Part shown: piece after piece, positions 1-14,000 of the stretch | How positions within the stretch are numbered: the first letter of the stretch is position 1 | Layout of the letters: each line of letters begins with the position of its first letter | Source: Promethearchaeota archaeon | Lineage (GTDB): Archaea; Asgardarchaeota; Lokiarchaeia; Sigyniarchaeales; SOKP01 | Reading direction: 5' to 3' | Assembly (NCBI GenBank): GCA_048941265.1 | Contig: JBHLNT010000108.1 | Location: 1 to 14,000, forward strand | DNA length: 14,000 nt | The notes under the pieces: model-generated | Told to the model about the DNA's origin: nothing | Seen by the model: the letters and a program-made list of their open reading frames with translations, nothing else | Database searches by the model: none | Translations under genes and position numbers: made by a program

Positions 1-48
1 ACCAAATTTTTTTTATATTTTTATAACTATAGGCTAAGGAGAGAAAAT

Positions 49-525
49 ATGAGAAATTTAGACGTGAAAGATAAACGAATCCTTGAAATGTTAATTGAAG
101 ATTCAAGAAGGTCGTATAAAGAAATATCAGAACAATTAGCTAATGAAAATTTGCCCATCTCGGAATCCACCGTAAGAAAACGCGTGGTAAAGTTGCAAGA
201 AGATGGTGTTATTGAGAAATTTACGATCAAGATCTGCAGGGAAGATGAAAGATGTATAATGGCCTTTATTACCTTAATTCCGAAATCAGAATCAGAAATT
301 AAAGAATTATTAAGGGAAACTCAAGTATTGCCTCAATGTGATGAGGTTTATTTTCTGGCGGGACAATGTGGCGTTTTAATTAAGGTTAATGTTCCTGAAA
401 TCAATGAATTAGATGCTTTAATCGAATCTTTTCGAGGAAGAAGCGATGTAAAAAGTGTCGAACGAGTTTGCGTGGTTTTGAAACCTATAAAGTCTGCTTC
501 TCAAAATGGCAAAATATTAATGTAG
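49..525 (+). CDS. Lrp/AsnC family transcriptional regulator (158 aa)
   Basis: N-terminal AsnC-type HTH (LDVKDKRILEMLIEDSRRSYKEISEQL...ISESTVRKRVVKLQEDGVIEKFTI) followed by a RAM-domain-like region (EVYFLAGQCGVLIKV...ELDALIESFR). AGGAGAG purine tract at 37-43 precedes the ATG. Confidence 0.93.
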   Translation: MRNLDVKDKRILEMLIEDSRRSYKEISEQLANENLPISESTVRKRVVKLQEDGVIEKFTIKICREDERCIMAFITLIPKSESEIKELLRETQVLPQCDEVYFLAGQCGVLIKVNVPEINELDALIESFRGRSDVKSVERVCVVLKPIKSASQNGKILM

Positions 526-679
526 AATCAATCGAATAATTAAATTATATTTTCATAGAATAGTTTTTAACTTGTAAAGGGCACAATTTTAATTTATTTT
601 TAAATCCAAATTTAATTTAGACTCTTTTTTAAAAAAATTCGTCTTTAATAAGTAAACTCAGTTGGGGATAAAATAATTG

Positions 680-1708
680 TTAACTAACAAATAGAATTTT
701 ATTATTTTTTTCAATTCTTTTTACTTGGTTCTTATTTTCTAAATAGATCAGATGACCCATAACTTCGCTAAGTGCCAGAAAGGAATTCATCTCATCTAAG
801 TCATTCCCAAAATGGAGTAAAGAGATTTTATAGGGCGTCAATGGATTATCTTTAATCACACTTGAAATTTCACTAAGTCTTCTGTCATGATGGCTCTTTA
901 TTTCTTGAATACGTTTATGGGGATCATAAATTATCTCCTGATGGGCTGGGAAGATTATTTTCGGATTTAACTCATCGATCCTATCTAAAGAATGCAAGTA
1001 ATGCTTCAAAATATCTTCAAAATCGTATTTTTCACTAAGTTCTGGATTTACTAGAAAGTTACCTATATGGGGAGTGATCCTGCTTAAAATATGATCTCCA
1101 GAAAATAAATAGCGTTTCTTATTATTAAAAACACATATATGCCCTAAAGCATGTCCAGGCGTCCAGATTACTTTTAATTTATTAGTTTTAAAAGAAATTT
1201 CATCCCCATCATGTAAAAGTTTATCAGGCTCAATATACTTCCTAAGTTTTGGCCACATCGTAAACCAATCTATTAACCTTTTTCCTTTATTTTCGTCCAT
1301 TCCATATTTAATTACTTGCTGAACCATCTCTTTCGCACTTTGCACCAAATCCTTGTAATTCTCTGGATCAGTTTCCCATTTAAGGGTCTCATGAGCGGCC
1401 TCTGACATCATTATTTGAATATTTGGATTGATACGTTTACATTGTTGCATTAAACCAGTATGATCCGTATGTTCATGTGAAATAAAACAGTAGTCGATTT
1501 CTTTCATTGATATCCCTATTTTATCGAGAGCTGAAAAAAACAGTTTGGGCCAATTGCCCATATCTAAACCCGCATCAAACATGACATATGAATCGTCTAT
1601 TTTGAAAATATAGACGCAAACATATTTAACAGCCCAGGGTACGGTTATTTTAATTTGATAAACGTTCTCAATTTCATTAATTTCAGATTTGAAGCTATGA
1701 GAAAACAC
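680..1708 (-). CDS. Metallo-beta-lactamase-fold hydrolase with probable C-terminal winged-helix-like domain (342 aa, GTG start)
   Basis: MBL motifs are all present: FDAG, HEHTDH (HxHxDH), TPGHALGH, FSGDH and FPAH. The C-terminal LTPYKISLLHFG...ALSEVMGHLIYLE segment resembles the winged-helix tail of this hydrolase group. Substrate unknown. Confidence 0.9.
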   Translation of the reverse strand: MFSHSFKSEINEIENVYQIKITVPWAVKYVCVYIFKIDDSYVMFDAGLDMGNWPKLFFSALDKIGISMKEIDYCFISHEHTDHTGLMQQCKRINPNIQIMMSEAAHETLKWETDPENYKDLVQSAKEMVQQVIKYGMDENKGKRLIDWFTMWPKLRKYIEPDKLLHDGDEISFKTNKLKVIWTPGHALGHICVFNNKKRYLFSGDHILSRITPHIGNFLVNPELSEKYDFEDILKHYLHSLDRIDELNPKIIFPAHQEIIYDPHKRIQEIKSHHDRRLSEISSVIKDNPLTPYKISLLHFGNDLDEMNSFLALSEVMGHLIYLENKNQVKRIEKNNKILFVS

Positions 1709-1820
1709 AATTCAAGTCATTATAAAATAAATCTTTTTAAGTTGTATTAAATAAATTAAGAAGTAATTTTTACTTTTTTATTTTAAATTAAAGGAATTGA
1801 AGTTCTTATTTTCAAAAATG

Positions 1821-2120
1821 TTATTTTGCTTTCTTATTTTCTTCTTTTTTTTTGTCGCTTTCAAAAAATAAGCACTTTTTCATATCAAATTCTAAATCTC
1901 TTAGTTTTCGTTTAATTTCAGCAGGATTAAAATCATGCTTTAATAAATCCATAATCGTTTCCTTTAAACGCTCCAAATTATCCACTCCACATTGATAAAA
2001 AATATCATTTTCATCAAAATTTAGTGTTAATATCTCAAATAGACCATCCAAAGCACTTTTTATTTTTTCGTAGTAATCCCATGCCTTGTCTAACTCTGAA
2101 GCTTTGTTGGAATGCGACAT
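1821..2120 (-). CDS. Uncharacterised small alpha-helical protein, tandem paralog A (99 aa)
   Basis: Identical to the 2262-2576 product at 70 of 81 core residues by manual alignment. Many silent third-position DNA differences indicate a real coding gene. Confidence 0.9.
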   Translation of the reverse strand: MSHSNKASELDKAWDYYEKIKSALDGLFEILTLNFDENDIFYQCGVDNLERLKETIMDLLKHDFNPAEIKRKLRDLEFDMKKCLFFESDKKKEENKKAK

Positions 2121-2154
2121 AATTTAAAGAATTCTCTACGTTAAGTTAAATAAT

Positions 2155-2172
2155 AAAATTAGGTAAAAAAAC
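2155..2172 (-). promoter_or_regulatory. Conserved upstream element of paralog A
   Basis: AAAATTAGGTAAAAAAAC (+ strand) matches AAAATTATGTAAAAAAAC at 2616-2633 at 17/18 positions. Both lie at a similar distance upstream of their paralog's start codon. Confidence 0.55.
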
Positions 2173-2261
2173 TTTCTTACCGAAAATTATCTTCGATCCA
2201 AAAAATAAAACTTTACAGAATAAGCAAAAATATTATAATCTTGATTTGACTTAAAAAAATC

Positions 2262-2576
2262 TTAATGTTTAATTCCTTTTTTTGCTTTTTGTTTCTCTTC
2301 TCTTTTATCAGATTCGAAAAATAGACATTTTTTCATATCAAACTCTAAATCTCTTAATTTTCGTTTTATTTCAGCCGAGTTATAATCATTTTTTAATAAA
2401 TCCATTATTGTTTCTTTTATTCGTTCTAAGTTATCTAATCCACATTGATAAAAAATATCGTCTTCGTCGAAATTTAAAGTTAAGATTTCAAACAGACCAT
2501 CTAATGCAGTTCTGATTCGCTCGTAATATTCCCAACCCTTATCTAATTTAGATTGCTCATCCTTTAAATTAGACAT
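2262..2576 (-). CDS. Uncharacterised small alpha-helical protein, tandem paralog B (104 aa)
   Basis: Paralog of 1821-2120. AGAGGGT SD-like motif upstream on the minus strand, and a T7 run just after the stop codon. Confidence 0.9.
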   Translation of the reverse strand: MSNLKDEQSKLDKGWEYYERIRTALDGLFEILTLNFDEDDIFYQCGLDNLERIKETIMDLLKNDYNSAEIKRKLRDLEFDMKKCLFFESDKREEKQKAKKGIKH

Positions 2577-2615
2577 TTCTTTATTACCCTCTTATACAAT
2601 AAAATATAGAATTAA

Positions 2616-2633
2616 AAAATTATGTAAAAAAAC
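2616..2633 (-). promoter_or_regulatory. Conserved upstream element of paralog B (may also act as T-tract terminator of the 2641-2979 gene)
   Basis: 17/18 match to 2155-2172. Reads GTTTTTTTACATAATTTT on the minus strand and starts 8 nt after the stop codon of the upstream gene. Confidence 0.55.
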
Positions 2634-2640
2634 CTTTTTC

Positions 2641-2979
2641 TTAAAAAACAGATTTTATTTGCTCTCCTAATTTTTTAGCGTCCTGACCAGAAGTTGCCAA
2701 AATTTTAAACATTTCCGCAGGATTGACTATTAAGCATGCATCGAGTAGTTTTTCTAAACCAATTCTGGTATTCAATCTCTCATTTTTCGCTAAATGAAAA
2801 ATTACTCTTCCTAATTCATTTTTTAAAGCGCCTTTCTCAGAATTTAAACATACTCTATACAAAGCAGGGCAAACTTCGTCAATCATATCTTGACTGGCTT
2901 TACTAGCATAAGTATATACTTTTTGTCTTTGTTCTTCATTTACTCCCTGTTCTTTTACTTTTTGTAATATTATTTCCAT
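2641..2979 (-). CDS. Uncharacterised helical protein (112 aa)
   Basis: Clean ORF with protein-like amphipathic composition, a GGATGTGA SD-like motif (2989-2996) and a BRE-TATA-like promoter upstream (3063-3079). Confidence 0.85.
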   Translation of the reverse strand: MEIILQKVKEQGVNEEQRQKVYTYASKASQDMIDEVCPALYRVCLNSEKGALKNELGRVIFHLAKNERLNTRIGLEKLLDACLIVNPAEMFKILATSGQDAKKLGEQIKSVF

Positions 2980-2988
2980 TTTTTTTCA

Positions 2989-2996
2989 TCACATCC
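2989..2996 (-). promoter_or_regulatory. Shine-Dalgarno-like motif GGATGTGA
   Basis: One mismatch to archaeal GGAGGTGA, with a 9-nt spacer to the ATG at 2979. Confidence 0.55.
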
Positions 2997-3062
2997 ATTA
3001 TTTTTGATTTTTTTTAGTAATTTTTTATTTTTTTAGTATTAATTTAAGAAAGAATTTTCGAG

Positions 3063-3079
3063 TATATAAATGTTTTGGG
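3063..3079 (-). promoter_or_regulatory. Archaeal-type BRE + TATA box for the 112-aa gene
   Basis: Minus strand reads CCCAAAACA-TTTATATA, an A-rich BRE-like stretch directly before a consensus TATA box. Confidence 0.55.
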
Positions 3080-3569
3080 AAAAGAAACTTACCATTTATT
3101 ACTAATATGGGAAATTATGTTAAATTCTTAAAATTTTCAGTTTTCATAATGACGAAAAAAAGAATTAATTATTCTATTAATTACTATTATGAAAAATAAT
3201 GAATTTGATAGAATTTTTATTGTCATCAAATACTCGAAAAAATTTATTTACTTGACTTTTTCATTACTTATTCAAAAAATGAGTAAGAAATCCGTCATGA
3301 AAAAATCAAAATTGTGCTTCAAAAAAAATTACGAAATCCAAAAAAATCAAGATTTTTTTGATCGAATCTCATATTTCATAGCAAGATAAATCCAAAAACT
3401 GATCAGAATGTAGTTTATAATTAATTATAAGCCAATTCACTGCATAAAATCAGCGAAATTTTAGAAATATTATCATAAGTAGACAAAAATATTACTGAAA
3501 CTTTTAAAAAAGGAATTATCTTAAATTATTATAATAGAAATTCAATTTATACAAAAATGTGATTTAAGA

Positions 3570-4670
3570 ATGTTAGAAGAAACTTTAGATGTATATCGAG
3601 AATTACAGCAACATCTTGATAAATTTCCAGTGGGTTTTCCAGCTACAGAATCAGGTGCAGAAATTCGCATATTAAAACATCTCTTTACACCTGAAGAGGC
3701 AAAAATCGCAACAAGACTAAGTGATAAATTTGAATCTTTAGATGATATTTATGAAAGGGTAAAAGATTTAGTTGGATCCACTAAAGAATTAAAAATTGTG
3801 CTGGATAAAATGATTAGCAAAGGTTCAATTCATTGCAAAAAGGTTGATGGAGAAAGACATTATGCTAATGCCTATATAGTAGTGGGAATGTATGAATATC
3901 AATTACATAAACTTTCAAAAGAATTTTTAGAAGATATGAGACAATATGCTGAAGAAACTTTAGGATTAGAGTTATTTGGATATGATATAACTCAATTTAG
4001 AACTATACCAGTAGAAGCAAGTGTTACACCTGAACATAAATTACCAACTTATGATGAATTGGTAAAAGTAATTGAAAATATATCAGGTCCCATTGTTTTA
4101 GCTGATTGCCTTTGTCGTCAAGCCCATGAAATAGTCGAAGGTCCCTGTGAAGTAACCTCTCGAAAAGAAACTTGTATGGGATTTGGAGACTTTGCGCAGA
4201 TGTATATAGATGAAGGGTGGGGTCGAGGTATTAGTAAAGAAGAAGCCCTTGAAGTATTGAGAAAAAATGAGGAAGAAGGATTGGTTCTGCAAGGGGAAAA
4301 TGCGAAAAGACCAGGATTTATTTGTAGCTGCTGCGGGTGTTGTTGTGGAGTTTTAAGTACATTAAAGGAATTTCCTAATGTCGCACAATTTTTACATCCC
4401 AGATATCATGCTGAAATTGACCCCGAGTTATGTGTCGGGTGCGGAACTTGTATAGAACGATGTCAATTAGACGCAATAAAAACTCGGAAGGAAATATCTA
4501 AGGTAAATATTAAACGATGCATAGGCTGCGGAAATTGTGTTGCAGTTTGTCCTGAAGAAGCTATAACTTTATTTAAAAACGAAAAAGTACCTGAATTACC
4601 TGAAGATGAAGATGATATGTTTCAAAAGATCTCCGAAGCAAAGATGAAAATGAAAGCAATGCAAAAATAA
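3570..4670 (+). CDS. Cys-rich iron-sulfur protein with C-terminal 2x[4Fe-4S] ferredoxin domain, paralog A (366 aa)
   Basis: Ferredoxin motifs CVGCGTCIERC and CIGCGNCVAVCP. Additional CLCR-x9-C-x8-C and CSCCGCCC Cys clusters. N-terminal PVGFP...FTPEEAKIAT signature shared with the next gene. Confidence 0.9.
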   Translation: MLEETLDVYRELQQHLDKFPVGFPATESGAEIRILKHLFTPEEAKIATRLSDKFESLDDIYERVKDLVGSTKELKIVLDKMISKGSIHCKKVDGERHYANAYIVVGMYEYQLHKLSKEFLEDMRQYAEETLGLELFGYDITQFRTIPVEASVTPEHKLPTYDELVKVIENISGPIVLADCLCRQAHEIVEGPCEVTSRKETCMGFGDFAQMYIDEGWGRGISKEEALEVLRKNEEEGLVLQGENAKRPGFICSCCGCCCGVLSTLKEFPNVAQFLHPRYHAEIDPELCVGCGTCIERCQLDAIKTRKEISKVNIKRCIGCGNCVAVCPEEAITLFKNEKVPELPEDEDDMFQKISEAKMKMKAMQK

Positions 4671-4684
4671 TTTTAAATTTTCTA

Positions 4685-4697
4685 TTTCTTTTTTTTT
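4685..4697 (+). terminator. Oligo-T terminator
   Basis: TTTCTTTTTTTTT run about 15-27 nt after the stop codon, typical of archaeal termination. Confidence 0.5.
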
Positions 4698-4798
4698 AAT
4701 CATCATATAGCTATTATTTGTGTTTTCTTTTAGCTTTAGTTTTAAAATTAACTTTTTTAGATATTAATTATTTACAAATTTAACTCTTAATTAATTAA

Positions 4799-5941
4799 AT
4801 GCATAAAGATATGACCTTAGACGAGTTAAATAATATTTCTGATGATGATTCGGCATATAGAGCTCTACAGCAACATCTTAATGAGATGCCTGTGGGATTT
4901 CCTCGAACAAAATCAGGAGTAGAACTTCGTTTATTAAAAAATTTCTTTACTCCTGAAGAAGCTAAAATCGCAACGAAACTTAAATTCGCATGGTCTAAAG
5001 ATTTTGAATCAATAGATGTAATTTATGAGCGGGTAAAAGGATCGGGAATGTCACTTGAAGAGTTAGAGCAAATCTTAGATGCTATGTTCAAAAAAGGAAC
5101 TATTATGTTTCAAGAGGAAAGTGGTACAAAATATTATGCAAATGCAATGTTTGCCATCGGTATTTATGAATTACAGCTGAATAATATTAATAAAAAGTGG
5201 CTTCGAGAATTTTCCCAATTTATGAAAGAAGGGTATAGTATGGAATTTTTTGGCACAAAGATCTCCCAATTTCGTACTATTCCCGTGGAAAAGAGCCTAA
5301 TACCAGAACATCACGCTCCCAGTTATGAGGAAGTAAGAAATATTATTGAAAGTATTGAGGGTCCACTGGCGACCGCGACCTGTATGTGCCGAAAAGTCAC
5401 AGAACTCTTTAATCATCCATGTAAACAAACAAATTTGCGAGAAACATGCTTAATCTTTAATGAATTTGCGCAGCATTACATCGATCAAGGATTAGGACGG
5501 CAGATAACTAAAGAGGAAGCACTTGAAACCTTAGAAAAAGTAAAGAGGGACGGTTTGGTTCTAAATGCAGGAAATTCTAAAAATCCGAGCTTTATTTGTT
5601 GTTGCTGCCAAGATTGTTGTATGTTTTTAGTCGGGATGAATTTACTTTCCCGTCCTACCAAATTTCATGCTACTAACTACTATGCTGAAGTAGATCCCGA
5701 TGCTTGCACAGGTTGCGGGATTTGCATCGATCGTTGTCAACTGAACGCTATAAAAATTGTTGATGATGTTTCTAAAGTAATCCAAAAGCGATGTGTGGGA
5801 TGTGGAAATTGTGTAATTACTTGTCCAGTGGAAGCTATACAACTTCGGAAGAAAGAGAAGATAACAATACCGCCAGAAACCGAAGAAGAATTGTATTCCA
5901 AGATTTTAGAAACAAAAAAACAATTGAAAGGTAAAAATTAA
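4799..5941 (+). CDS. Cys-rich iron-sulfur protein with C-terminal 2x[4Fe-4S] ferredoxin domain, paralog B (380 aa; alternative start 4811)
   Basis: CTGCGICIDRC and CVGCGNCVITCP, plus CMCR-x9-C-x8-C and CCCCQDCC. Collinear with 3570-4670 along its full length. Confidence 0.9.
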   Translation: MHKDMTLDELNNISDDDSAYRALQQHLNEMPVGFPRTKSGVELRLLKNFFTPEEAKIATKLKFAWSKDFESIDVIYERVKGSGMSLEELEQILDAMFKKGTIMFQEESGTKYYANAMFAIGIYELQLNNINKKWLREFSQFMKEGYSMEFFGTKISQFRTIPVEKSLIPEHHAPSYEEVRNIIESIEGPLATATCMCRKVTELFNHPCKQTNLRETCLIFNEFAQHYIDQGLGRQITKEEALETLEKVKRDGLVLNAGNSKNPSFICCCCQDCCMFLVGMNLLSRPTKFHATNYYAEVDPDACTGCGICIDRCQLNAIKIVDDVSKVIQKRCVGCGNCVITCPVEAIQLRKKEKITIPPETEEELYSKILETKKQLKGKN

Positions 5942-6133
5942 AGAAAATAAATTTCAATTTCTATATTTACTAATATTTACAACTAATTCCATAATATCCT
6001 AAAGATTTTATTTTTCCTTCCCGTTTTAAATTCATTTAACAATTTCGTTAATTGAATAATATCCATTAATATTATAAATAACGAGTTCTATTATTCTTAC
6101 ATTAAAATTTACAAAAAAATTTCCAATTTAAAG

Positions 6134-7636
6134 ATGATTTACAAAATGGAAAACCAATTACAAATTGAATTAACAAAAATTCAAAAAAAAGAGAGACTTC
6201 AAAAAAGGATTACAAAATATATTAGCGGCCCTGGCAAATGGCTTCTTTTAATACTTCCGTGGTTTTTAGTGATAATAACCATCCTTGCTCTGTTAGCGGT
6301 TGTTAGATTAGTCGATATTAATGTTTCATTATTGTTCTACATAGTATTGGGTCTATATTTTATCAATTCAGTTATGCTTTTCTTAGGATCTTTATTTACG
6401 CAAAAATCCTTAAAAATGCGACTTAACTTTGAAAGAAAAAGAGGGCGCCCTATTGATAGTTTAGATGGGTTTGATCTCCTTTATAATAATATTAAAAGAG
6501 TCATTAATCTATTGAGAATAATTGCCATATTATGCCTTATAGCTTTAGCACTGTTTTTGGCTATGCTTTTAGTAGGACTTCTTGAAATAGGGTATGCTGC
6601 TATTGGATTTGCATTATTTGGTTTCGGATTGGCACTTTTAGTACGCTCACTAAACTTGAACATACATGATGTTAATGGCCTTAGTGATTTCTATAAGCCC
6701 ACTACTCATCAAATATTTTTGGACAATTTTTTCTCCGAAATACTCTCTAATCACCTTGATCCTGTAACATACCTTAAGTGGGACGATTATCTCGCAGGGA
6801 TTAATGAAATCTTAATATCATCATTCGTCCAGAAAGTAAAACAACAAGAAGCAGAAGAATTACCCATAACTTTCGCTATGGAAAGAATCTTATTTTTATA
6901 TTATTTGAATTTCCAAGAGGTTTTAACAAGAGAGCAATTTGTTAATGAATTAAGAGAAGTAATAAATGTCGATTCTGAATCTTTTGATATCGAAAAAGGA
7001 TTACAAATAGGTGGTGCATGGTATTTCTCATTGAAAGATATGTCAAAATTATTTAATTATGTTAAGATTTACAATCCGGGATTTTTTAACATCATTGACC
7101 GATTACAGTTAGAATTAACCGATAACATTGTTCGATTATCTAATGACCCCATATATATGGATTCGAGCGCCCAGGAAGTAGTTTTTAAAGGGAGTGAACT
7201 CAATATTATGATTTTTCTGTATAATAATGCAGCAGAAAGCAAAAAATATCGGCTTAAAATAATTGCGCCAGGATTCGATCCTCGAGAAATACTTCTTGAT
7301 GTTGAAGTAGAGGGGAGGGGAACCTTTATAATACCTATTGAGCCAATCCCACTTATTGCAAAAGATAAAACTGATATCGTCAGTGTACTGTCAGGAATGT
7401 TAGAAAATGGTGATACTACATGGCTCACATTAGAACCGAGAGAATTAGGAGAACAAACTATTCAAATCTTTTTAGAAACCGAAGAAGGCATTATTATCGA
7501 AGGGAAAACAAGGTCAGTAAAAGTCTCTAAAGATTTAATGACCCAAATCAAAAAATTGACATCAATGGGTTCAATTCTGGGAGGTTTAGCAGCACCTCTT
7601 TCAAGAGCTCTCGCAGGTGGAGGCTTACCAATATAA
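6134..7636 (+). CDS. Uncharacterised membrane protein (500 aa; about 4 N-terminal TM helices, large soluble C-terminal region; alternative start 6146)
   Basis: Hydrophobic segments at about aa 36-57, 64-88, 129-150 and 152-170. A helical-looking middle is followed by a beta-strand-like alternating pattern from about aa 345-465 and a Gly-rich hydrophobic tail. Confidence 0.85.
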   Translation: MIYKMENQLQIELTKIQKKERLQKRITKYISGPGKWLLLILPWFLVIITILALLAVVRLVDINVSLLFYIVLGLYFINSVMLFLGSLFTQKSLKMRLNFERKRGRPIDSLDGFDLLYNNIKRVINLLRIIAILCLIALALFLAMLLVGLLEIGYAAIGFALFGFGLALLVRSLNLNIHDVNGLSDFYKPTTHQIFLDNFFSEILSNHLDPVTYLKWDDYLAGINEILISSFVQKVKQQEAEELPITFAMERILFLYYLNFQEVLTREQFVNELREVINVDSESFDIEKGLQIGGAWYFSLKDMSKLFNYVKIYNPGFFNIIDRLQLELTDNIVRLSNDPIYMDSSAQEVVFKGSELNIMIFLYNNAAESKKYRLKIIAPGFDPREILLDVEVEGRGTFIIPIEPIPLIAKDKTDIVSVLSGMLENGDTTWLTLEPRELGEQTIQIFLETEEGIIIEGKTRSVKVSKDLMTQIKKLTSMGSILGGLAAPLSRALAGGGLPI

Positions 7637-7639
7637 TAT

Positions 7640-7686
7640 CTTTTCATATTTTTTTTTCCATTTTATTATTACTTTTCTTTTATTTT
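7640..7686 (+). terminator. T-rich terminator region
   Basis: Several T runs, including T9 at 7649-7657, directly after the stop codon. Confidence 0.5.
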
Positions 7687-7931
7687 GAATTTTTAAGTAG
7701 AATAGATGCAAAATTTTATAGAGAGTCGATTTGATAATTTTTCTCGTCAAATTATTTTCGATGTAAACATTTTTAGTCTTAAAATTTTGATAACATATAT
7801 TTTAAAACTTTATCATTTCGTTTCGAAATCATATCATTTAAATTTTGAAATTTCAAAAAAATTGATCAATTGCGTCACCCATTGATCACATTTTAATATT
7901 TGTTTTACTTTTTCTATCATAGAATATTATA

Positions 7932-7939
7932 TTTATATA
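7932..7939 (+). promoter_or_regulatory. TATA box candidate for metV-metF
   Basis: TTTATATA ending 37 nt before the ATG at 7977. The region is AT-rich, so a chance match is possible. Confidence 0.45.
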
Positions 7940-7976
7940 AAAAACATATACATAAATGTAAAGGTTGAGAAAAAAA

Positions 7977-8648
7977 ATGGTCGTAATAACCACAAAAAAA
8001 CCAGAAGAAGAGATATTTGAAGCACTGAACAATTATCATGCTAATAAAATCGCTATTGTTTCTTGTGGTACATGCGCCGCCCTCTGTCAAACTGGAGGAA
8101 CTGAGGGTTTAGCAGAATGGCAAGAAAAGCTGAAAGAAAAGGGTTTTGAAATCACTGCGGGTATTGTATCTGAAGATGTATGTGATAACAGAGTAATGAA
8201 AAAAGATCTAAGAAAAATAGATGATGAAATTAAAGAATCAGATGCAATTTTAACGTTAAGTTGCGGATTAGGAGCTCAAAGTATTATAAAAACCCTTGAG
8301 AAAAATTATCCACGTCTACCTGTTATCGTAGCTAATGATACACAATTTATGGGAATGACTGAGAGAATTGGTCGATTTTATATGCGATGTCAAGGATGCG
8401 GTGAATGTCTTCTAAACGAAACTGGGGGCATTTGTCCGATAACCACATGTGCCAAGGCACTAATGAACGGGCCCTGTGGAGGAATGGTTAAGGGTAAATG
8501 CGAAGTCGGAAATTATGAAAGAGATTGCGGATGGGTCTTGATATATAACCGATTAAAAGAAATCGGCAGACTTGACCTATTCTCTAAGCTAAGAGAACCC
8601 CGAAACTGGAGTGCATCTGGACATCAAAGAGAGGTAGTTTTTAGATAG
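7977..8648 (+). CDS. metV: MetV, Cys-rich (Fe-S/Zn) subunit of acetogen-type methylenetetrahydrofolate reductase (MTHFR C-terminal-like family)
   Basis: Characteristic motifs SCGTCAALCQTGG, LSCGLGAQ, CQGCGECLLNETGGICPITTCAKALMNGPCGG and CEV...DCGWVLIYNRLKEIGRLD, directly upstream of metF. ATG 7977 is preferred over TTG 7965 because AAGGTTGA (7961-7968) sits at SD distance from it. Confidence 0.92.
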   Translation: MVVITTKKPEEEIFEALNNYHANKIAIVSCGTCAALCQTGGTEGLAEWQEKLKEKGFEITAGIVSEDVCDNRVMKKDLRKIDDEIKESDAILTLSCGLGAQSIIKTLEKNYPRLPVIVANDTQFMGMTERIGRFYMRCQGCGECLLNETGGICPITTCAKALMNGPCGGMVKGKCEVGNYERDCGWVLIYNRLKEIGRLDLFSKLREPRNWSASGHQREVVFR

Positions 8649-8654
8649 GAGGTG
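8648..8654 (+). promoter_or_regulatory. Shine-Dalgarno GGAGGTG of metF
   Basis: Overlaps the last base of the metV stop codon, with 7 nt to the metF ATG, indicating a bicistronic unit. Confidence 0.8.
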
Positions 8655-8661
8655 GAAAAAA

Positions 8662-9591
8662 ATGGCAGAAAAAAAAGTTTATTCAAAATTAGGAGAAGCT
8701 CTTGCAAAAGGCGATTTTGTTTTAACTGGTGAATTAGAACCAGAAAAAACCTGTGACCTTTCACATTTAGTTCAAGAAGCAAAAGAGATGGCTCCTTATG
8801 TAGTAGCTGCTAATGTAACAGACAGCCCTCTTGGAATTGTAACAATTAACAGCCTGGCAGCCTCATATATCGTTCAAAGAGATGCTGGTTTGGAATGTAT
8901 CTGGCAATTAACTGTAAGAGATGTCAATAAACTTGGTATTGCTGGTATGATTATGGGGGCTCAAGCCCTTGGAATTCATAATGTACTCTCCCTAACTGGA
9001 GATCATCCTAATATGGGGGATATGCCAGAAACCAAACCTGTGTTTGACTTAGACTCAGCCACCTTAGTTAAATTAGTAAGAGAGATGGTTGATACTGGCG
9101 CTATTAATGGAAAGGAAATAGAGCATCCTCCAAAGTTACATGTGGGTGCAGCCGCAAATCCAAACTCAGATCCAATGGAAGCTGAAGCACTAAAAATTGG
9201 GCGAAAAGCAGAGGCAGGAGCGGAATTTATCCAGACTCAAGTTGTTTATGATTTAGATAAAACAATAGAATTTTTAAGAGCAATTAATAAATACAAAGTT
9301 CCAGTTCTACTTGGATTATTTCCAATGAAAAGTTATGCAATAGCGAAAGGTTTCGATATGTTTGTTCCCGGTGTTGATGTTCCAAAAGATATTCTGGCTA
9401 AATGGAAAGGTATAAAAACAGATATTACCGATAAAAAGGCTCAGCAAGAAGCCTATGATCTGGCAAATTATGAATTCTTTAAACCTTTTGTCACTGAGCT
9501 AAAAGCTAAGAAATTATTGGCAGGAATTCATTGTATGGCCGTCCATTACCCCAGGATATTCCCAAAATTAGTAGAAGTAATTAAAGGTTAA
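8662..9591 (+). CDS. metF: 5,10-methylenetetrahydrofolate reductase, flavin subunit (309 aa)
   Basis: MTHFR motifs TGELEP (catalytic Glu), NVTDSP, QLTVRD, LSLTGDHP (catalytic Asp), KAEAGAEFIQTQVVYD, VPGVDVP and GIHCMA. Confidence 0.93.
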   Translation: MAEKKVYSKLGEALAKGDFVLTGELEPEKTCDLSHLVQEAKEMAPYVVAANVTDSPLGIVTINSLAASYIVQRDAGLECIWQLTVRDVNKLGIAGMIMGAQALGIHNVLSLTGDHPNMGDMPETKPVFDLDSATLVKLVREMVDTGAINGKEIEHPPKLHVGAAANPNSDPMEAEALKIGRKAEAGAEFIQTQVVYDLDKTIEFLRAINKYKVPVLLGLFPMKSYAIAKGFDMFVPGVDVPKDILAKWKGIKTDITDKKAQQEAYDLANYEFFKPFVTELKAKKLLAGIHCMAVHYPRIFPKLVEVIKG

Positions 9592-9594
9592 ATC

Positions 9595-9629
9595 AAGAGA
9601 ATAGTGATTTTTCACTTATTCTCTTTTTT
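9595..9629 (+). terminator. Stem-loop followed by T run after metF
   Basis: AAGAGAATAGTGA (9595-9607) pairs with TCAC-t-TATTCTCTT (9612-9625): 13 bp with one bulge and a 4-nt loop, continuing into Ts. Confidence 0.7.
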
Positions 9630-9857
9630 ATTTCTTATTAAAAATTATCTCTTTATTTTAATGATTTTAGTCTTTATTATTAATTAAAAATTTTTCATTT
9701 AAAATATTTAAATTCTATTATATTTGTATAGAAAATAATAAAAATATATAACTAAAAATTTTTTAATGCGTAATTTATAATTTATTTAAATAAATCAATA
9801 TTTAATTAAATATACACATTCGTACAAATTTTCAAAAAATAGTGTAAAAGTGTCTAA

Positions 9858-10616
9858 ATGATAAATTCAGAAAAAAAAATGGAAGAACATGAACAAGAAA
9901 TAAAATTTCGTGAAGCATATGATCGAGTTAGTTTCTATAAAGACTTGCTTGCTCACGATATTAATAATATTCTTCAAAATATTAGTTCTTCATGTGAACT
10001 CATTTCCATTTATTCTGATAATCATTCTAAATCGGAGAAAATTAATGAATTAAGTGAAATTATTAAGGAACAAATTACAAGAGGAGAAAAATTAATCTCC
10101 AATGTCAGAAAATTAACACAATTAGAAAGGCCAGAATTTGAATTAGGTCCTGTAGACACCCATGAGATATTAAAAGAAGCAATCGAATACATTTTGAATA
10201 GGTTTCGTAGACGTGAGATCCAAATAAAGCTAGAGATTAGTGATCAAAATCACATTGTTTTAGCAAACGAGTTTCTAATAGATGTATTTGAAAATATTCT
10301 AATTAATGCGGTAAAATATACAACCAATCAAGTAGTTGAGATTTTGATAAAAGTTAGTAAGCAGGAATTCAATAGGTCCAAATATGTAAAAATAGAATTT
10401 ATGGATAATGGAATTGGTATCCCCCATAAAAAAAGGAAAATTATTTTTCAAATCGGGAATATGCTAATAAAAAGTGGAAAGGGAATGGGTTTAGGGTTAT
10501 CATTAGCAAAAAAAATTATTGAAAGTTATAAGGGAAAAATATGGGTGGAAAATAGAATAAAGGGAGATACTTCAAGGGGTAGTAATTTTAGTCTATTAAT
10601 TCCTGTAGCCATATAA
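9858..10616 (+). CDS. Histidine kinase (HisKA + HATPase only, no sensor domain; 252 aa)
   Basis: H box LAHDINNILQ, N box VFENILINAVKY, G1 FMDNGIGIP, G2 GMGLGLSLAKKII, terminal GSNFSLLIP. Confidence 0.92.
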   Translation: MINSEKKMEEHEQEIKFREAYDRVSFYKDLLAHDINNILQNISSSCELISIYSDNHSKSEKINELSEIIKEQITRGEKLISNVRKLTQLERPEFELGPVDTHEILKEAIEYILNRFRRREIQIKLEISDQNHIVLANEFLIDVFENILINAVKYTTNQVVEILIKVSKQEFNRSKYVKIEFMDNGIGIPHKKRKIIFQIGNMLIKSGKGMGLGLSLAKKIIESYKGKIWVENRIKGDTSRGSNFSLLIPVAI

Positions 10617-10748
10617 TTAGATTATTAATTTATTTTTGGGTATATCTAGAAATTTCGAAGTTTTGAGTTTTTAAATTTACATAAGAATTATCTCATCCTT
10701 TAAAACATTACTATAAACTTTAAATTCGATTTAAATAAAATTGAATTT

Positions 10749-12260
10749 ATGGAATCATATGATTTAGTAGTGATAGGGAGCGGAGCCGGCCTTAATATTT
10801 TAAATGTTGGCCTTAATATGGGACTTAAATGTGCGTTAATAGAAGACACAAAATTAGGCGGTACTTGTTTGACCCGGGGGTGTATCCCATCTAAAGTGCT
10901 TGTTCATCCCGCAGATTTAATTCGAGAAGCTCAACATGCCAAAAAGGTGGGAATTCATTTTAATGTTGAGAAAATTGATTGGAGTTTTATAGCTAAGCGA
11001 ATGTGGAGTCAAATTGATGAGAGTAATATGATGGAGGAAGGATTATCATCTGTTCCAAATCTTAAGCTGTATCGTGGCATTGGTGAATTTACTGGAGAAT
11101 ATAAAATGGTTATAAGATCTAAGGATGGAAAAAAAACCCTTGGAGAATTTAGGGGTGAGAAGTTTGTTATTGCTTCTGGAGCTCGTTCTTTCATTCCCCC
11201 TATTGAAGGCATCGATAAGATTGATTATATTACTAATGAAAATTTTTTTGGTAATAAATTCCCAGAAAAGCCTTGGAAAAGTCTTATTATTATTGGTGGA
11301 GGAGTTGTTGCAGCTGAATTTGCTCATATATTTTCTGCCATGGGAACTGAAGTTACAATCGTTGAAATGCTGCCACGCTTAGTAATGACTGAAGAACCCG
11401 AAATTAGTACATTTTTGGAGCAAAATTTTAAAAAAAATATGACTGTTTTGCTTAATTATAAAGCGGTGAAGGTAGAGGAGAAGAAAAAAAGGAAGATTTT
11501 AACCGTTGAAAATGTTAATACAGGGGATAAAAAAAATATTGAAGCAGAAGAAATTTTAGTGGCTGCGGGGCGTAAATCTAATGCCGATATCTTAAAGGTT
11601 GATAAAACTGGGATTGAAACCGATAAACGTGGGTGGATAAAAACTAATAAATTTTTAGAGACATCTAAAAAAAATATTTGGTGCATCGGAGATGCAAATG
11701 GACTTTATCAGTTCCGTCATAAAGCAAATTATGAAGCTGAAATTTGTAGTAATAATATTTTTGGAGAATCAAAAATGCAGGCAGATTATTCTTCTGTTCC
11801 ATGGGCTATTTTCTCATATCCTCAAGTAGGACATGTAGGAATGACCCAAGCTGAAGCTATTGAGAAAGGACATGAAATTTTTGTAGCCATAAAAAATTAT
11901 TCTACTGTCGCTAAAGGTTTTGCCATGGGTTTCGAGAATGGAGATGTGGATGATGGTTTTGTCAAATTAGTAATCGATAAAACCTATAAGATTTTAGGGG
12001 CGCATGTTGTTGGTCCAAGTGCTGCTATATTGGTTCAACCTTTTGTATATTTGATGAATGCGGGATTTACTTGTACTTTTCCAGAACAAACTGAACAAGC
12101 ACCTGGTACAAAATTAGAACGAGCATGTCCAGAAGCTGGTTCGTTTATACCAATTTACCAATCCATGGTTATACATCCTTCGCTTAATGAAGTCGCAGGT
12201 TGGGCGATTGGTTCTTTGAGACCGGTTAATATAAAAATGGAACACCATCACAAGCATTAA
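10749..12260 (+). CDS. Class I pyridine nucleotide-disulfide oxidoreductase (dihydrolipoamide dehydrogenase / mycothione reductase-like; 503 aa)
   Basis: FAD-binding VVIGSGAG, redox disulfide GGTCLTRGCIPSK (C40/C45), dinucleotide motif IIGGGVVAAE...VE, IGD motif, and catalytic HPSLNE (H476/E481). Confidence 0.92.
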   Translation: MESYDLVVIGSGAGLNILNVGLNMGLKCALIEDTKLGGTCLTRGCIPSKVLVHPADLIREAQHAKKVGIHFNVEKIDWSFIAKRMWSQIDESNMMEEGLSSVPNLKLYRGIGEFTGEYKMVIRSKDGKKTLGEFRGEKFVIASGARSFIPPIEGIDKIDYITNENFFGNKFPEKPWKSLIIIGGGVVAAEFAHIFSAMGTEVTIVEMLPRLVMTEEPEISTFLEQNFKKNMTVLLNYKAVKVEEKKKRKILTVENVNTGDKKNIEAEEILVAAGRKSNADILKVDKTGIETDKRGWIKTNKFLETSKKNIWCIGDANGLYQFRHKANYEAEICSNNIFGESKMQADYSSVPWAIFSYPQVGHVGMTQAEAIEKGHEIFVAIKNYSTVAKGFAMGFENGDVDDGFVKLVIDKTYKILGAHVVGPSAAILVQPFVYLMNAGFTCTFPEQTEQAPGTKLERACPEAGSFIPIYQSMVIHPSLNEVAGWAIGSLRPVNIKMEHHHKH

Positions 12261-12393
12261 TCCTCATAAATTTTTCTTTTAATTTTTAGATATAATATAA
12301 TTAGCTCTCTTATCTTCCATTGACTCTCTTTTTTACGAATGATAAGCCTTAAAACATCAAATATTTAGATATTAAAACTAATATTATAATCAG

Positions 12394-14000
12394 ATGGTTT
12401 CAAAAAAAATGAAGTGGATTGAAAATAATCCTATAGGTCAGATTTTTACTCCACATCATATTGCAGAATTCATGGTTAAGAACAGTTTAAAATTTATTAA
12501 AAATTTAGGTAAAAGTATTCATGAAATAACAGTTTTAGAGCCATCAGCTGGTAAAGGTATATTTTTAAAATATTTGATTCAAAACAATTTTAAAAACATA
12601 ACAGCTTATGAAATCGATGAAAAATTAAAAAATTCCTTATTACAAAAATATCCAGACGTAAATTTTAGGTTTATGAATGTATTAAGTTCAGATCTTAATG
12701 AAAAATTTGATTTGATCATCGGAAATCCGCCCTATTTAGGTCAAAATTATAATGCTGAAGTTTTTCAGGAATATATTAAGAAGTTTCCCATATGTGCTAA
12801 ATATTTTGTAGGTAATATGGATTTATTTTATTTTTTTATACATATTGGTATAGAGAAGTTAAATCCGGGTGGTATTTTGTCTTTTATCACAACAAATTAT
12901 TGGGTTACAAAATCCAAGAAAACTGGAATTAAATTACTTAAACCCCATATATTAGATGAATGCTATATCCTTCAATATATTGATTTATCGAATTTAGCAC
13001 TTTTTAAACAAGCCACCGGGCAAGATAATTGCATTTTTTTATTACAAAAAAAAACAAAAAAAGAAAAAGAGTGTAAAACTGATAAAAAAATAGAAATTAT
13101 TCAGATTGGAAAAAGAAATAATTTAGCCTTATCTAATAACGCATTTAATCAGTCAATTTTTGAGAATTTAATCCATAATAAAAATTCAATATACATAAAA
13201 AAATATTATTCAGCACTAACTAATAACAATTTAAAAAGAGATGGAAGCTGGAATCTAATATATCCTGAACAAGTAAAAGAACTTGTCGAAAAAATTGAAA
13301 AATTTTGCTTTTTAAATGGAAAAGTTAGTCTTTTAAACGACTTTTTTATAATTCGCAATGGTTTAATTTTAATTAAAGATGAATATTTCATTTTAAATGA
13401 AGGGATTAATCTCAAAATAGAAAATAATGATTTTCTTATTAAAATCAATAAGAATTTTTTCAAGCTCAATGAACATGAAAAAAGCAGGTTAAAAAAAGTC
13501 TATAAAAGTAGATCTATATTACCATATGGATATAAGAAAGAGGATTTTTCTGGATATATCATTTATTTCAATAGAAGTGAATGCAATTTAAAAGACATAG
13601 ATAAATCAAATAGATTATTTGAAAAAAAATACCCAACATTGATGGCATATCTAAGACAATATGAGAAAGAATTAAGAGAAATATTAATAAACGCTAAAGA
13701 AAATCCTGAAGATTTTTATTTTCCACGAAGAGGTGCATATATTCATATCTTAGATCAAGAAAATAAGGATACATTAATCGATCTTGAACCATTTTATGAT
13801 CATCATAAAAAAATTTTTTTTAAGTATATCTCAAGTGAAAATCTATTTGGCTTTACTGAAAAACCGTATTATGCAACTTCAGACACTTATTTTCTCTGGC
13901 CAAAAAGTATTGTTAAGGATATAGATTATCATTTCATTCTCGCTTATCTTAATTCTAAAATAGTAGCATTTCTGTTTAAAGCAAAAAATATAAAGATCAA
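12394..14000 (+). CDS. N6-adenine DNA methyltransferase, gamma class (M.TaqI/Eco57I-like), 3'-truncated by the window edge; alternative start 12409
   Basis: Manual translation is open for 535 codons to the window end. Motif X GQIFTP (12436-12453), motif I LEPSAGKGIF (12535-12564), motif II AYEID, motif IV IIGNPPY (NPPY 12724-12735), then DLFYFFI...LNPGGILSFIT. TaqI_C-like ILAYLNSK lies near 13936-13959. Confidence 0.92.
   Translation, partial: MVSKKMKWIENNPIGQIFTPHHIAEFMVKNSLKFIKNLGKSIHEITVLEPSAGKGIFLKYLIQNNFKNITAYEIDEKLKNSLLQKYPDVNFRFMNVLSSDLNEKFDLIIGNPPYLGQNYNAEVFQEYIKKFPICAKYFVGNMDLFYFFIHIGIEKLNPGGILSFITTNYWVTKSKKTGIKLLKPHILDECYILQYIDLSNLALFKQATGQDNCIFLLQKKTKKEKECKTDKKIEIIQIGKRNNLALSNNAFNQSIFENLIHNKNSIYIKKYYSALTNNNLKRDGSWNLIYPEQVKELVEKIEKFCFLNGKVSLLNDFFIIRNGLILIKDEYFILNEGINLKIENNDFLIKINKNFFKLNEHEKSRLKKVYKSRSILPYGYKKEDFSGYIIYFNRSECNLKDIDKSNRLFEKKYPTLMAYLRQYEKELREILINAKENPEDFYFPRRGAYIHILDQENKDTLIDLEPFYDHHKKIFFKYISSENLFGFTEKPYYATSDTYFLWPKSIVKDIDYHFILAYLNSKIVAFLFKAKNIKI

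Follow-up and report, generated by a model that had tools for sequence, protein, structure and literature searches.

Family X, a duplicated small helical protein of one Asgard lineage and a possible dimeric adaptor module linked to a 112-residue partner

We analysed a 14,000-nucleotide stretch of a Promethearchaeota archaeon genome (Asgardarchaeota; Lokiarchaeia; Sigyniarchaeales; SOKP01; assembly GCA_048941265.1, contig JBHLNT010000108.1, positions 1 to 14,000 of the forward strand; this whole stretch is called the window here), in which two adjacent genes encode closely similar proteins of about 100 amino acids (aa), copies A and B. Both belong to a family of small helical proteins that we name X, and the gene of an all-helical protein, P112, lies directly upstream of copy B. 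An earlier reading of the sequence by a model (the original prediction) had placed two related open reading frames (ORFs) at 1821-2576, and both were found there, on the minus strand. In the direction of transcription, the locus comprises:

2641..2979, minus strand: P112, 112 aa, all-helical, single-copy in this genome
2577..2640, minus strand: 64-bp spacer from the 112-aa gene to copy B, with an oligo-T run and an A/T-rich motif
2262..2576, minus strand: copy B, an ORF of 104 aa, a derived 'B-type' member of the main clade of family X, directly downstream of the P112 gene
2121..2261, minus strand: spacer between B and A, with an oligo-T run just past the B stop codon and a second copy of the motif that precedes B (T7, then AC.TAATTTT)
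1821..2120, minus strand: copy A, an ORF of 99 aa, a main-clade member of family X

The signals in the 2577..2640 spacer may, to judge from their letters, act as a terminator or a promoter; the corresponding P112-to-X gap is typically ~39 bp in other loci, as against 64 bp here.

Copies A and B are real genes under strong purifying selection. They aligned by BLASTP without gaps at 74 of 95 identical residues (78%) and 89 of 95 positives (E 4e-56), and in the core, which runs from LDK to SDK in each protein, 70 of the 81 residues are identical, with nearly all of the 11 differences (G/A, E/D, R/K, R/K, T/S, D/N, L/V, I/L, N/H, Y/F and S/P) conservative, in agreement with the original prediction. 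That prediction had also proposed an old duplication with both copies constrained, to be judged by dN/dS. By Nei-Gojobori counts, 35.5 of the 42.7 synonymous sites in the core have changed (pS 0.83), compared with 13.5 of the 200.3 non-synonymous sites (pN 0.067). Because the synonymous sites are saturated, dS cannot be corrected, and the resulting pN/pS of ~0.08, far from 1, indicates strong purifying selection on both copies and no recent gene conversion; an old, constrained duplication thus stands.

To establish how widely the family occurs, whole-genome searches were made across the phylum, and X was matched in 120 of 400 genomes. These matches were concentrated in a single family of organisms: 118 of the 134 other genomes of the window's own GTDB family carried X, as against one of the 265 genomes of the phylum outside that family, and this one match was marginal (E 3.9e-5). 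A first sample of three other families of the same order had likewise yielded X in none of 12 genomes. X is therefore a lineage-specific family rather than an Asgard-wide one, and the phylum-wide importance implied by the original prediction is not upheld. The identity of 60-70% among main-clade members is a figure for one family of organisms. A word-based search returned 60 relatives of X, most of them named hypothetical and, where labelled, Asgard, and a profile search of 1.84 billion cluster representatives recovered no more than 82 clusters at E ≤ 0.001. Submitter labels of Hermod-, Hod-, Thor- or Odinarchaeota occur on some X records; a wider range read from these labels was rejected, all matches but the one marginal match falling in one GTDB family. 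Several records were set aside as unusable, namely four repeat proteins or giant adhesins in which ~25 residues were matched many times (P0100, P0136, P0138 and P0142) and two apparently chimeric gene calls (P0081, a GcpE N-terminus joined to X, and P0129, half an X joined to Sel1 repeats). One contig labelled as a Nanopelagicaceae bacterium (DATKTW010000048.1, locus L031) carries P112, X and Asgard-type neighbour genes, and is probably mis-binned or mislabelled.

The original prediction recognised no family for the two proteins, and neither did database searches. Pfam returned sub-threshold matches alone for A and B, the best being DASH_Dad3 (PF08656; 14.8 and 14.9 bits against a cut-off of 23.1, E 0.03, over ~35 residues), with a further match to the MIT domain for copy A alone (KATNA1_MIT, PF21126; 12.2 bits against a cut-off of 23.1, E 0.15). 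There were no NCBIfam matches for X, nothing significant in PHROGs (best E 0.0084, to a family without an assigned function), a best E of 0.55 for PDB sequences against the family profile, no Foldseek match of the X model in the PDB at E ≤ 0.001 and no usable match in the ESM Atlas. Two CRISPR-related candidates, Cas7c (local PADLOC matches of 14-17 bits at residues 68-100, the K/E-rich part of helix 3, covering ~32 of 250 profile positions) and Csm3 (the PDB profile match at E 0.55, over 40 residues), were rejected because the matches are local and composition-driven and X is all-helical. Within the partial texts available from the literature on Asgard proteins, nothing was found on X or P112, although proteins without names escape such searches; PMC12962969 likewise makes no mention of death, CARD, pyrin, helical bundle or PAS. 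We conclude that the X sequences make up an undescribed family whose type of fold is a common one, and that X falls outside the MIT, Dad3, BAR and chromatin families.

Structural modelling and a 32-member alignment were used to compare the predicted features of the pair with those of the family. The AF2 model of copy B, built from the 32-row alignment, has three helices (residues 2-35, 41-62 and 67-99), with a mean confidence score (pLDDT) of 80 and a predicted template-modelling score (pTM) of 0.58. Three amphipathic helices of 20-25 aa had been anticipated; the number agrees with the model, whereas helices 1 and 3 are modelled as longer. Both cysteines described as invariant are kept in A and B, but across the 32 aligned members the first (in YQC) alone is conserved at 90% or more, the second alternating with serine among main-clade members. 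Similarly, the lysine-rich C-terminal tails hold for the window's copies (net charge +3.5 for the tail of copy B) and are no family trait, with tails of X elsewhere mixed or acidic. The family as a whole is acidic, with a median isoelectric point (pI) of 4.8 and a median net charge of -6.5 over the 32 members.

These charges bear on the role that the original prediction had put forward, that of an abundant structural or chromatin-like protein; in this reading X would be a heterodimeric architectural or nucleoid protein that binds DNA or membranes through a lysine-rich helix 3 and tail. Small size, strong conservation and several paralogues are in keeping with such a protein, as are conserved basic residues in helix 3 (K73, R75, K82 and K83) and the lysine-rich tail of the window's copies. 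However, a median pI of 4.8, with acidic or mixed tails elsewhere, makes a chromatin role unlikely; no histone, Alba or other chromatin family was matched by A or B in Pfam at E ≤ 1, and a core architectural role is hard to square with a range of one GTDB family. Among the specific alternatives considered here, we regard this as the least probable.

The models do fit an oligomer. When B was modelled in complex with A, the interaction prediction score from aligned errors (ipSAE) had a median of 0.66, as against 0.00 for the best of three controls, and model runs agreed in at least 81% of contacts, with partner pLDDT of at least 70. Among solved complexes 116 of 157 pass the ipSAE mark applied, as do 2 of 215 mismatched pairs, rates that are roughly applicable here, where our own alignments were used. 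The contacts with the lowest predicted error are those between residues 24-32 in one chain (helix 1: L25, G27, L28, I31 and L32) and residues 41-49 in its partner (helix 2: C45, D48 and N49), and these residues occupy invariant or nearly invariant columns of the 32-member alignment (Gly27, Ile31, Asp48 and Asn49 are invariant at the modelled contact, where Leu25, Leu28, Cys45 and Leu50 also lie). Of the A/B substitutions, 7 of 11 fall within the modelled interface, a proportion that is uninformative because most of the core belongs to that interface. Three family members of 124-128 aa (P0068, P0092 and P0096) contain two helix 1-helix 2 hairpins per chain, in place of helix 3, as expected if two hairpins form the functional bundle. 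A and B thus probably pair as a helical-bundle dimer, as far as the models can tell. The originally predicted oligomeric or heterodimeric three-helix protein is retained to the extent that a dimer fits the model; an obligate heterodimer was not the ancestral state, as the distribution of copies makes clear.

Between one and six X matches are usual per genome in the GTDB family, and five members occur in the window's genome: A, B and the following genes on other contigs, which are 31-40% identical to copy B:

L003:1498-1776 and 2036-2332: second X tandem pair
L004:1471-1788: X singleton

The second pair is also tandem in three genomes of the same genus, with a third copy in one of them. The main clade behaves differently from this multiplicity. 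None of the 51 other species-representative loci examined that carry a family member had a second main-clade copy, same-genus loci with a main-clade gene had one copy each, and among the matches listed the window's genome alone had two X matches above 120 bits (copy A scores 164 bits against the family profile). Given a single main-clade copy elsewhere, the ancestral state cannot have been an obligate heterodimer. The A/B duplication is nonetheless not peculiar to this assembly, which would have told against the original prediction: a B-type and an A-type protein (P0005 and P0014) stand under adjacent locus tags in another metagenome-assembled genome (MAG), B-type proteins form a clade of 7 rows in the tree (support 93/98) with A-type rows nearby on short branches, and the spacer between A and B is bridged by contigs of sequencing runs from two studies (X1, 1600-2419, with 0 differences; X2, 1600-2465; X3, 1969-2394). 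The duplication is therefore lineage-specific, yet real and shared beyond this assembly. Copy A looks close to the ancestral form because of its short branch near the base of the tree. The regions upstream of A and B appear to align locally (score 50). Upstream of A, the sequence looks like the 3' end of the P112 gene followed by the spacer before B, which suggests that the duplicated unit may have comprised that 3' end, the spacer and the X gene.

P112 is a conserved companion of X. It was found in 105 of the 134 genomes of the GTDB family, and in 39 of 53 loci its gene was co-directional with X and directly upstream of it, most often at a distance of 33-209 bp. An X gene occurred within 1 kb of a full-length P112 gene in at least 73 of 94 genomes, in one of two arrangements (these linkage counts were read by eye from tables of gene places and are lower bounds): a co-directional main-clade X gene in at least 44 genomes, with gaps of 36-690 bp, and a divergent X gene of a different subfamily, of ~90 aa, in at least 29 genomes, 600-720 bp off. 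That the linkage is kept through two arrangements and two X subfamilies argues for a shared function. P112 is not itself a distant paralogue of X (hhalign probability 0.2%).

The P112 model is of higher confidence than that of copy B (pLDDT 89, pTM 0.83) and has seven helices. In an all-against-all structure search, death-fold entries (PYD, DED, CARD, DD and the bacterial death-like domain 8ss1) made up, by title, 42 of the best 50 rows, and residues 14-112 of P112 align to whole death-fold domains over 75-90 residues, with a root-mean-square deviation (rmsd) of 2.9-4.3 Å and low Z scores of 4.4-6.3. Foldseek of P112 against the PDB and BFVD returned nothing at E ≤ 0.001, no Death, DED, CARD or PYRIN family was matched in Pfam at E ≤ 1, and a PDB profile search gave no matches at E ≤ 10. 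We take the death-fold likeness as a lead that is consistent yet weak. In a look-alike search by language model, P112 fell near clusters of Phage_TAC_15, a phage tail assembly chaperone family (score 0.93, with 173-184 shared features), but membership in Phage_TAC_15 (PF21822) was rejected, as the family profile had no match in the whole genome at E ≤ 10; PADLOC found nothing for P112.

Both likenesses raise the question of whether P112 and X might be an adaptor pair derived from a conflict system or mobile element, that is, a small death-like or chaperone-like protein plus a helper, after the manner of bacterial immune systems with death-like adaptor domains. The 42 death-fold rows, with a bacterial death-like domain among them, and the Phage_TAC_15 neighbourhood would fit such an origin, and so would the patchy, lineage-specific expansions of paralogues. 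The pair is, however, held at a stable chromosomal position with housekeeping-type flanks in dozens of genomes, the cluster holds no recognised effector or NTPase gene, and selection is strongly purifying rather than diversifying; in addition, PADLOC gave nothing for P112 and the 14-17-bit Cas7c matches alone for X, and PF21822, BFVD and PHROGs gave nothing significant. We consider this origin quite unlikely, if a little less so than a chromatin role.

X also occurs joined to sensor domains. In two proteins X lies C-terminal to PAS domains (P0131, 375 aa, with PAS domains and then X; P0137, 241 aa, with one PAS and then X), and in a same-genus genome an intact 375-aa PAS-PAS-X ORF (L083:3368-4495) stands directly upstream of a 973-aa ORF (4807-7728) that, read by eye, appears to encode a multi-PAS histidine kinase. 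Being C-terminal to PAS, X holds the output or transmitter position of sensor proteins. Longer, fused forms of X were absent from the word-based search at E ≤ 0.001, a weak negative by that method. The window itself encodes, at 9858-10616 on the plus strand, a short HisKA-HATPase histidine kinase of 252 aa with no recognisable sensor or membrane part.

MetF-like and MetV-like genes lie within ~6.5 kb of X in 38 and 35 of 53 loci, respectively, and in another genus the divergent arrangement reads MetF, MetV, a leucine-rich repeat (LRR) protein, P112, X. X and P112 might accordingly be accessory subunits or assembly factors for the redox and C1-metabolism genes nearby, those of the methylene-tetrahydrofolate reductase MetV/MetF and of the Fe-S proteins, and it would suit such a role that two Fe-S paralogues adjoin the cluster in the window and that one cysteine of X is nearly invariant in the main clade. 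Against it, MetVF is encoded several kb off on the opposite strand, X has no metal-binding or cofactor motif, and other X paralogues sit beside unrelated genes (a phosphoesterase, an ABC transporter and a 208-aa ORF). Moreover, synteny inside a single GTDB family is weak evidence, and with X in 1 of 265 genomes outside that family any MetVF or Fe-S role would be lineage-specific. This explanation seems improbable to us, while being somewhat ahead of the conflict-system origin.

Other genes were observed in the window and around X elsewhere. On the plus strand of the window, tandem paralogues of ~370 aa at 3570-4670 and 4799-5941, a second duplicated pair, have C-terminal 4Fe-4S dicluster domains and share an unassigned N-terminal part. 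They are followed at 6134-7636 by a 500-aa protein that has several hydrophobic segments, matches no family in Pfam or NCBIfam and is found on the opposite strand near X in 31 loci, at 7965-9591 by a MetV-like gene (DUF5981, the methylene-tetrahydrofolate reductase C-terminal domain) and then a MetF-like MTHFR gene, and at 12394-13998, running off the window, by a large restriction-modification methylase of the Eco57I type, whose specificity domain is TaqI-like. A polytopic membrane protein of ~257 aa and no known family lies directly downstream of X in 29 loci (for example, L017:6371-7144); it is missing at that place in the window, and its family has 9 matches elsewhere in the genome, several with internal stops.

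Together, these results suggest a mechanism in which X is a small cytoplasmic protein of three helices, the first two of which would form a hairpin that pairs with the hairpin of a second chain into a four-helix-bundle dimer, with the invariant residues in contact. The basic form would be a homodimer, because most genomes have one main-clade copy; tandem duplication in the window's lineage then made A and B, for which an A:B heterodimer is also probably possible. The X dimer would serve as an adaptor or transmitter module, neither enzyme nor DNA binder, that works with P112, potentially by binding it, and the conserved C-terminal KKCLFF patch, which lies outside the modelled dimer contact, is a candidate partner site. 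In some relatives X would form the C-terminal output of PAS sensors, placed as a DHp bundle is after PAS but without the phospho-acceptor histidine. We assign a probability of roughly 0.4 to this reading, of X as an acidic dimeric adaptor or transmitter module that works with P112 and also as PAS output, with A and B able both to hetero- and to homodimerise; the probability left over from this reading and the alternatives above lies with a function of another kind.

Several observations weigh against the adaptor reading. The confidence of the copy B monomer model is moderate (pTM 0.58), and fold searches with it return generic helical matches alone. At 78% identity, the complex model cannot tell A:B from A:A or B:B. 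The window's own genome is without a PAS-X fusion. The co-occurrence of P112 and X is not strict, with one genus having P112 in 4 of 5 genomes and X in none of 5, and another having X in 2 of 4 and P112 in none of 4. Finally, all carriers belong to one GTDB family, so that gene order may partly reflect shared ancestry rather than selection.

If the adaptor reading is true, an undescribed helical dimerisation module was invented in one Asgard lineage and expanded there to 1-6 copies per genome, often in tandem, and the same lineage wired it to PAS sensors and to a small, perhaps death-like, partner. The narrow range limits the wider significance of such a module, which is no general Asgard or eukaryote-related feature, but a pair of ~100-aa proteins would be a tractable system in which to ask, in the archaea closest to eukaryotes, how new interaction modules and heterodimers of paralogues come about. 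The death-fold likeness of P112 is the most interesting thread. A bolder extension would make P112 a genuine death-fold adaptor and the X dimer its dedicated partner, in one assembly-based signalling module that is joined by PAS-X sensors and whose range of dimers is widened by A and B; this extension is a long shot, and, if true, it would amount to an archaeal equivalent of the death-fold signalling hubs, one that arose in close relatives of eukaryotes.

We finally compared X and P112 with known systems. The structural matches of X to the three-helix dimeric bundles of I-BAR (3ok8) and Rrp47 (4wfc) score within the background for helical models, at 4-13% identity and with no sequence similarity. 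I-BAR is about twice as long as X and basic, whereas X is acidic, and X lacks the form typical of BAR and I-BAR proteins, a three-helix coiled-coil dimer of about 200-250 aa whose membrane-binding face is basic; the alignment to Rrp47 has an rmsd of 10 Å. P112 resembles death-fold adaptors (DD, DED, CARD and PYD domains, and 8ss1) in being small, stand-alone and all-helical, with a predicted six-helix core weakly reminiscent of theirs, and differs from them in its extra N-terminal helix and in that no caspase-, kinase- or NTPase-type partner is encoded nearby. For X itself, the nearest comparison is with the DHp (HisKA) domain of histidine kinases. Some features set the two apart: no histidine is among the invariant or ≥90% conserved columns of the 32 X members, X has no ATPase domain, A and B do not match HisKA (PF00512) at E ≤ 1, hhalign against the window's HisKA-HATPase kinase gives a probability of 0.7%, and X has a third helix and is mostly a stand-alone protein of ~100 aa. 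Both, however, have a helical hairpin, through which two chains of X are predicted to form a four-helix bundle, both sit directly C-terminal to PAS sensor domains (X in its fusions), and in both a long first helix could prolong the PAS-linker helix. On the strength of the models, then, X would appear to work most like a DHp-type dimerisation bundle.

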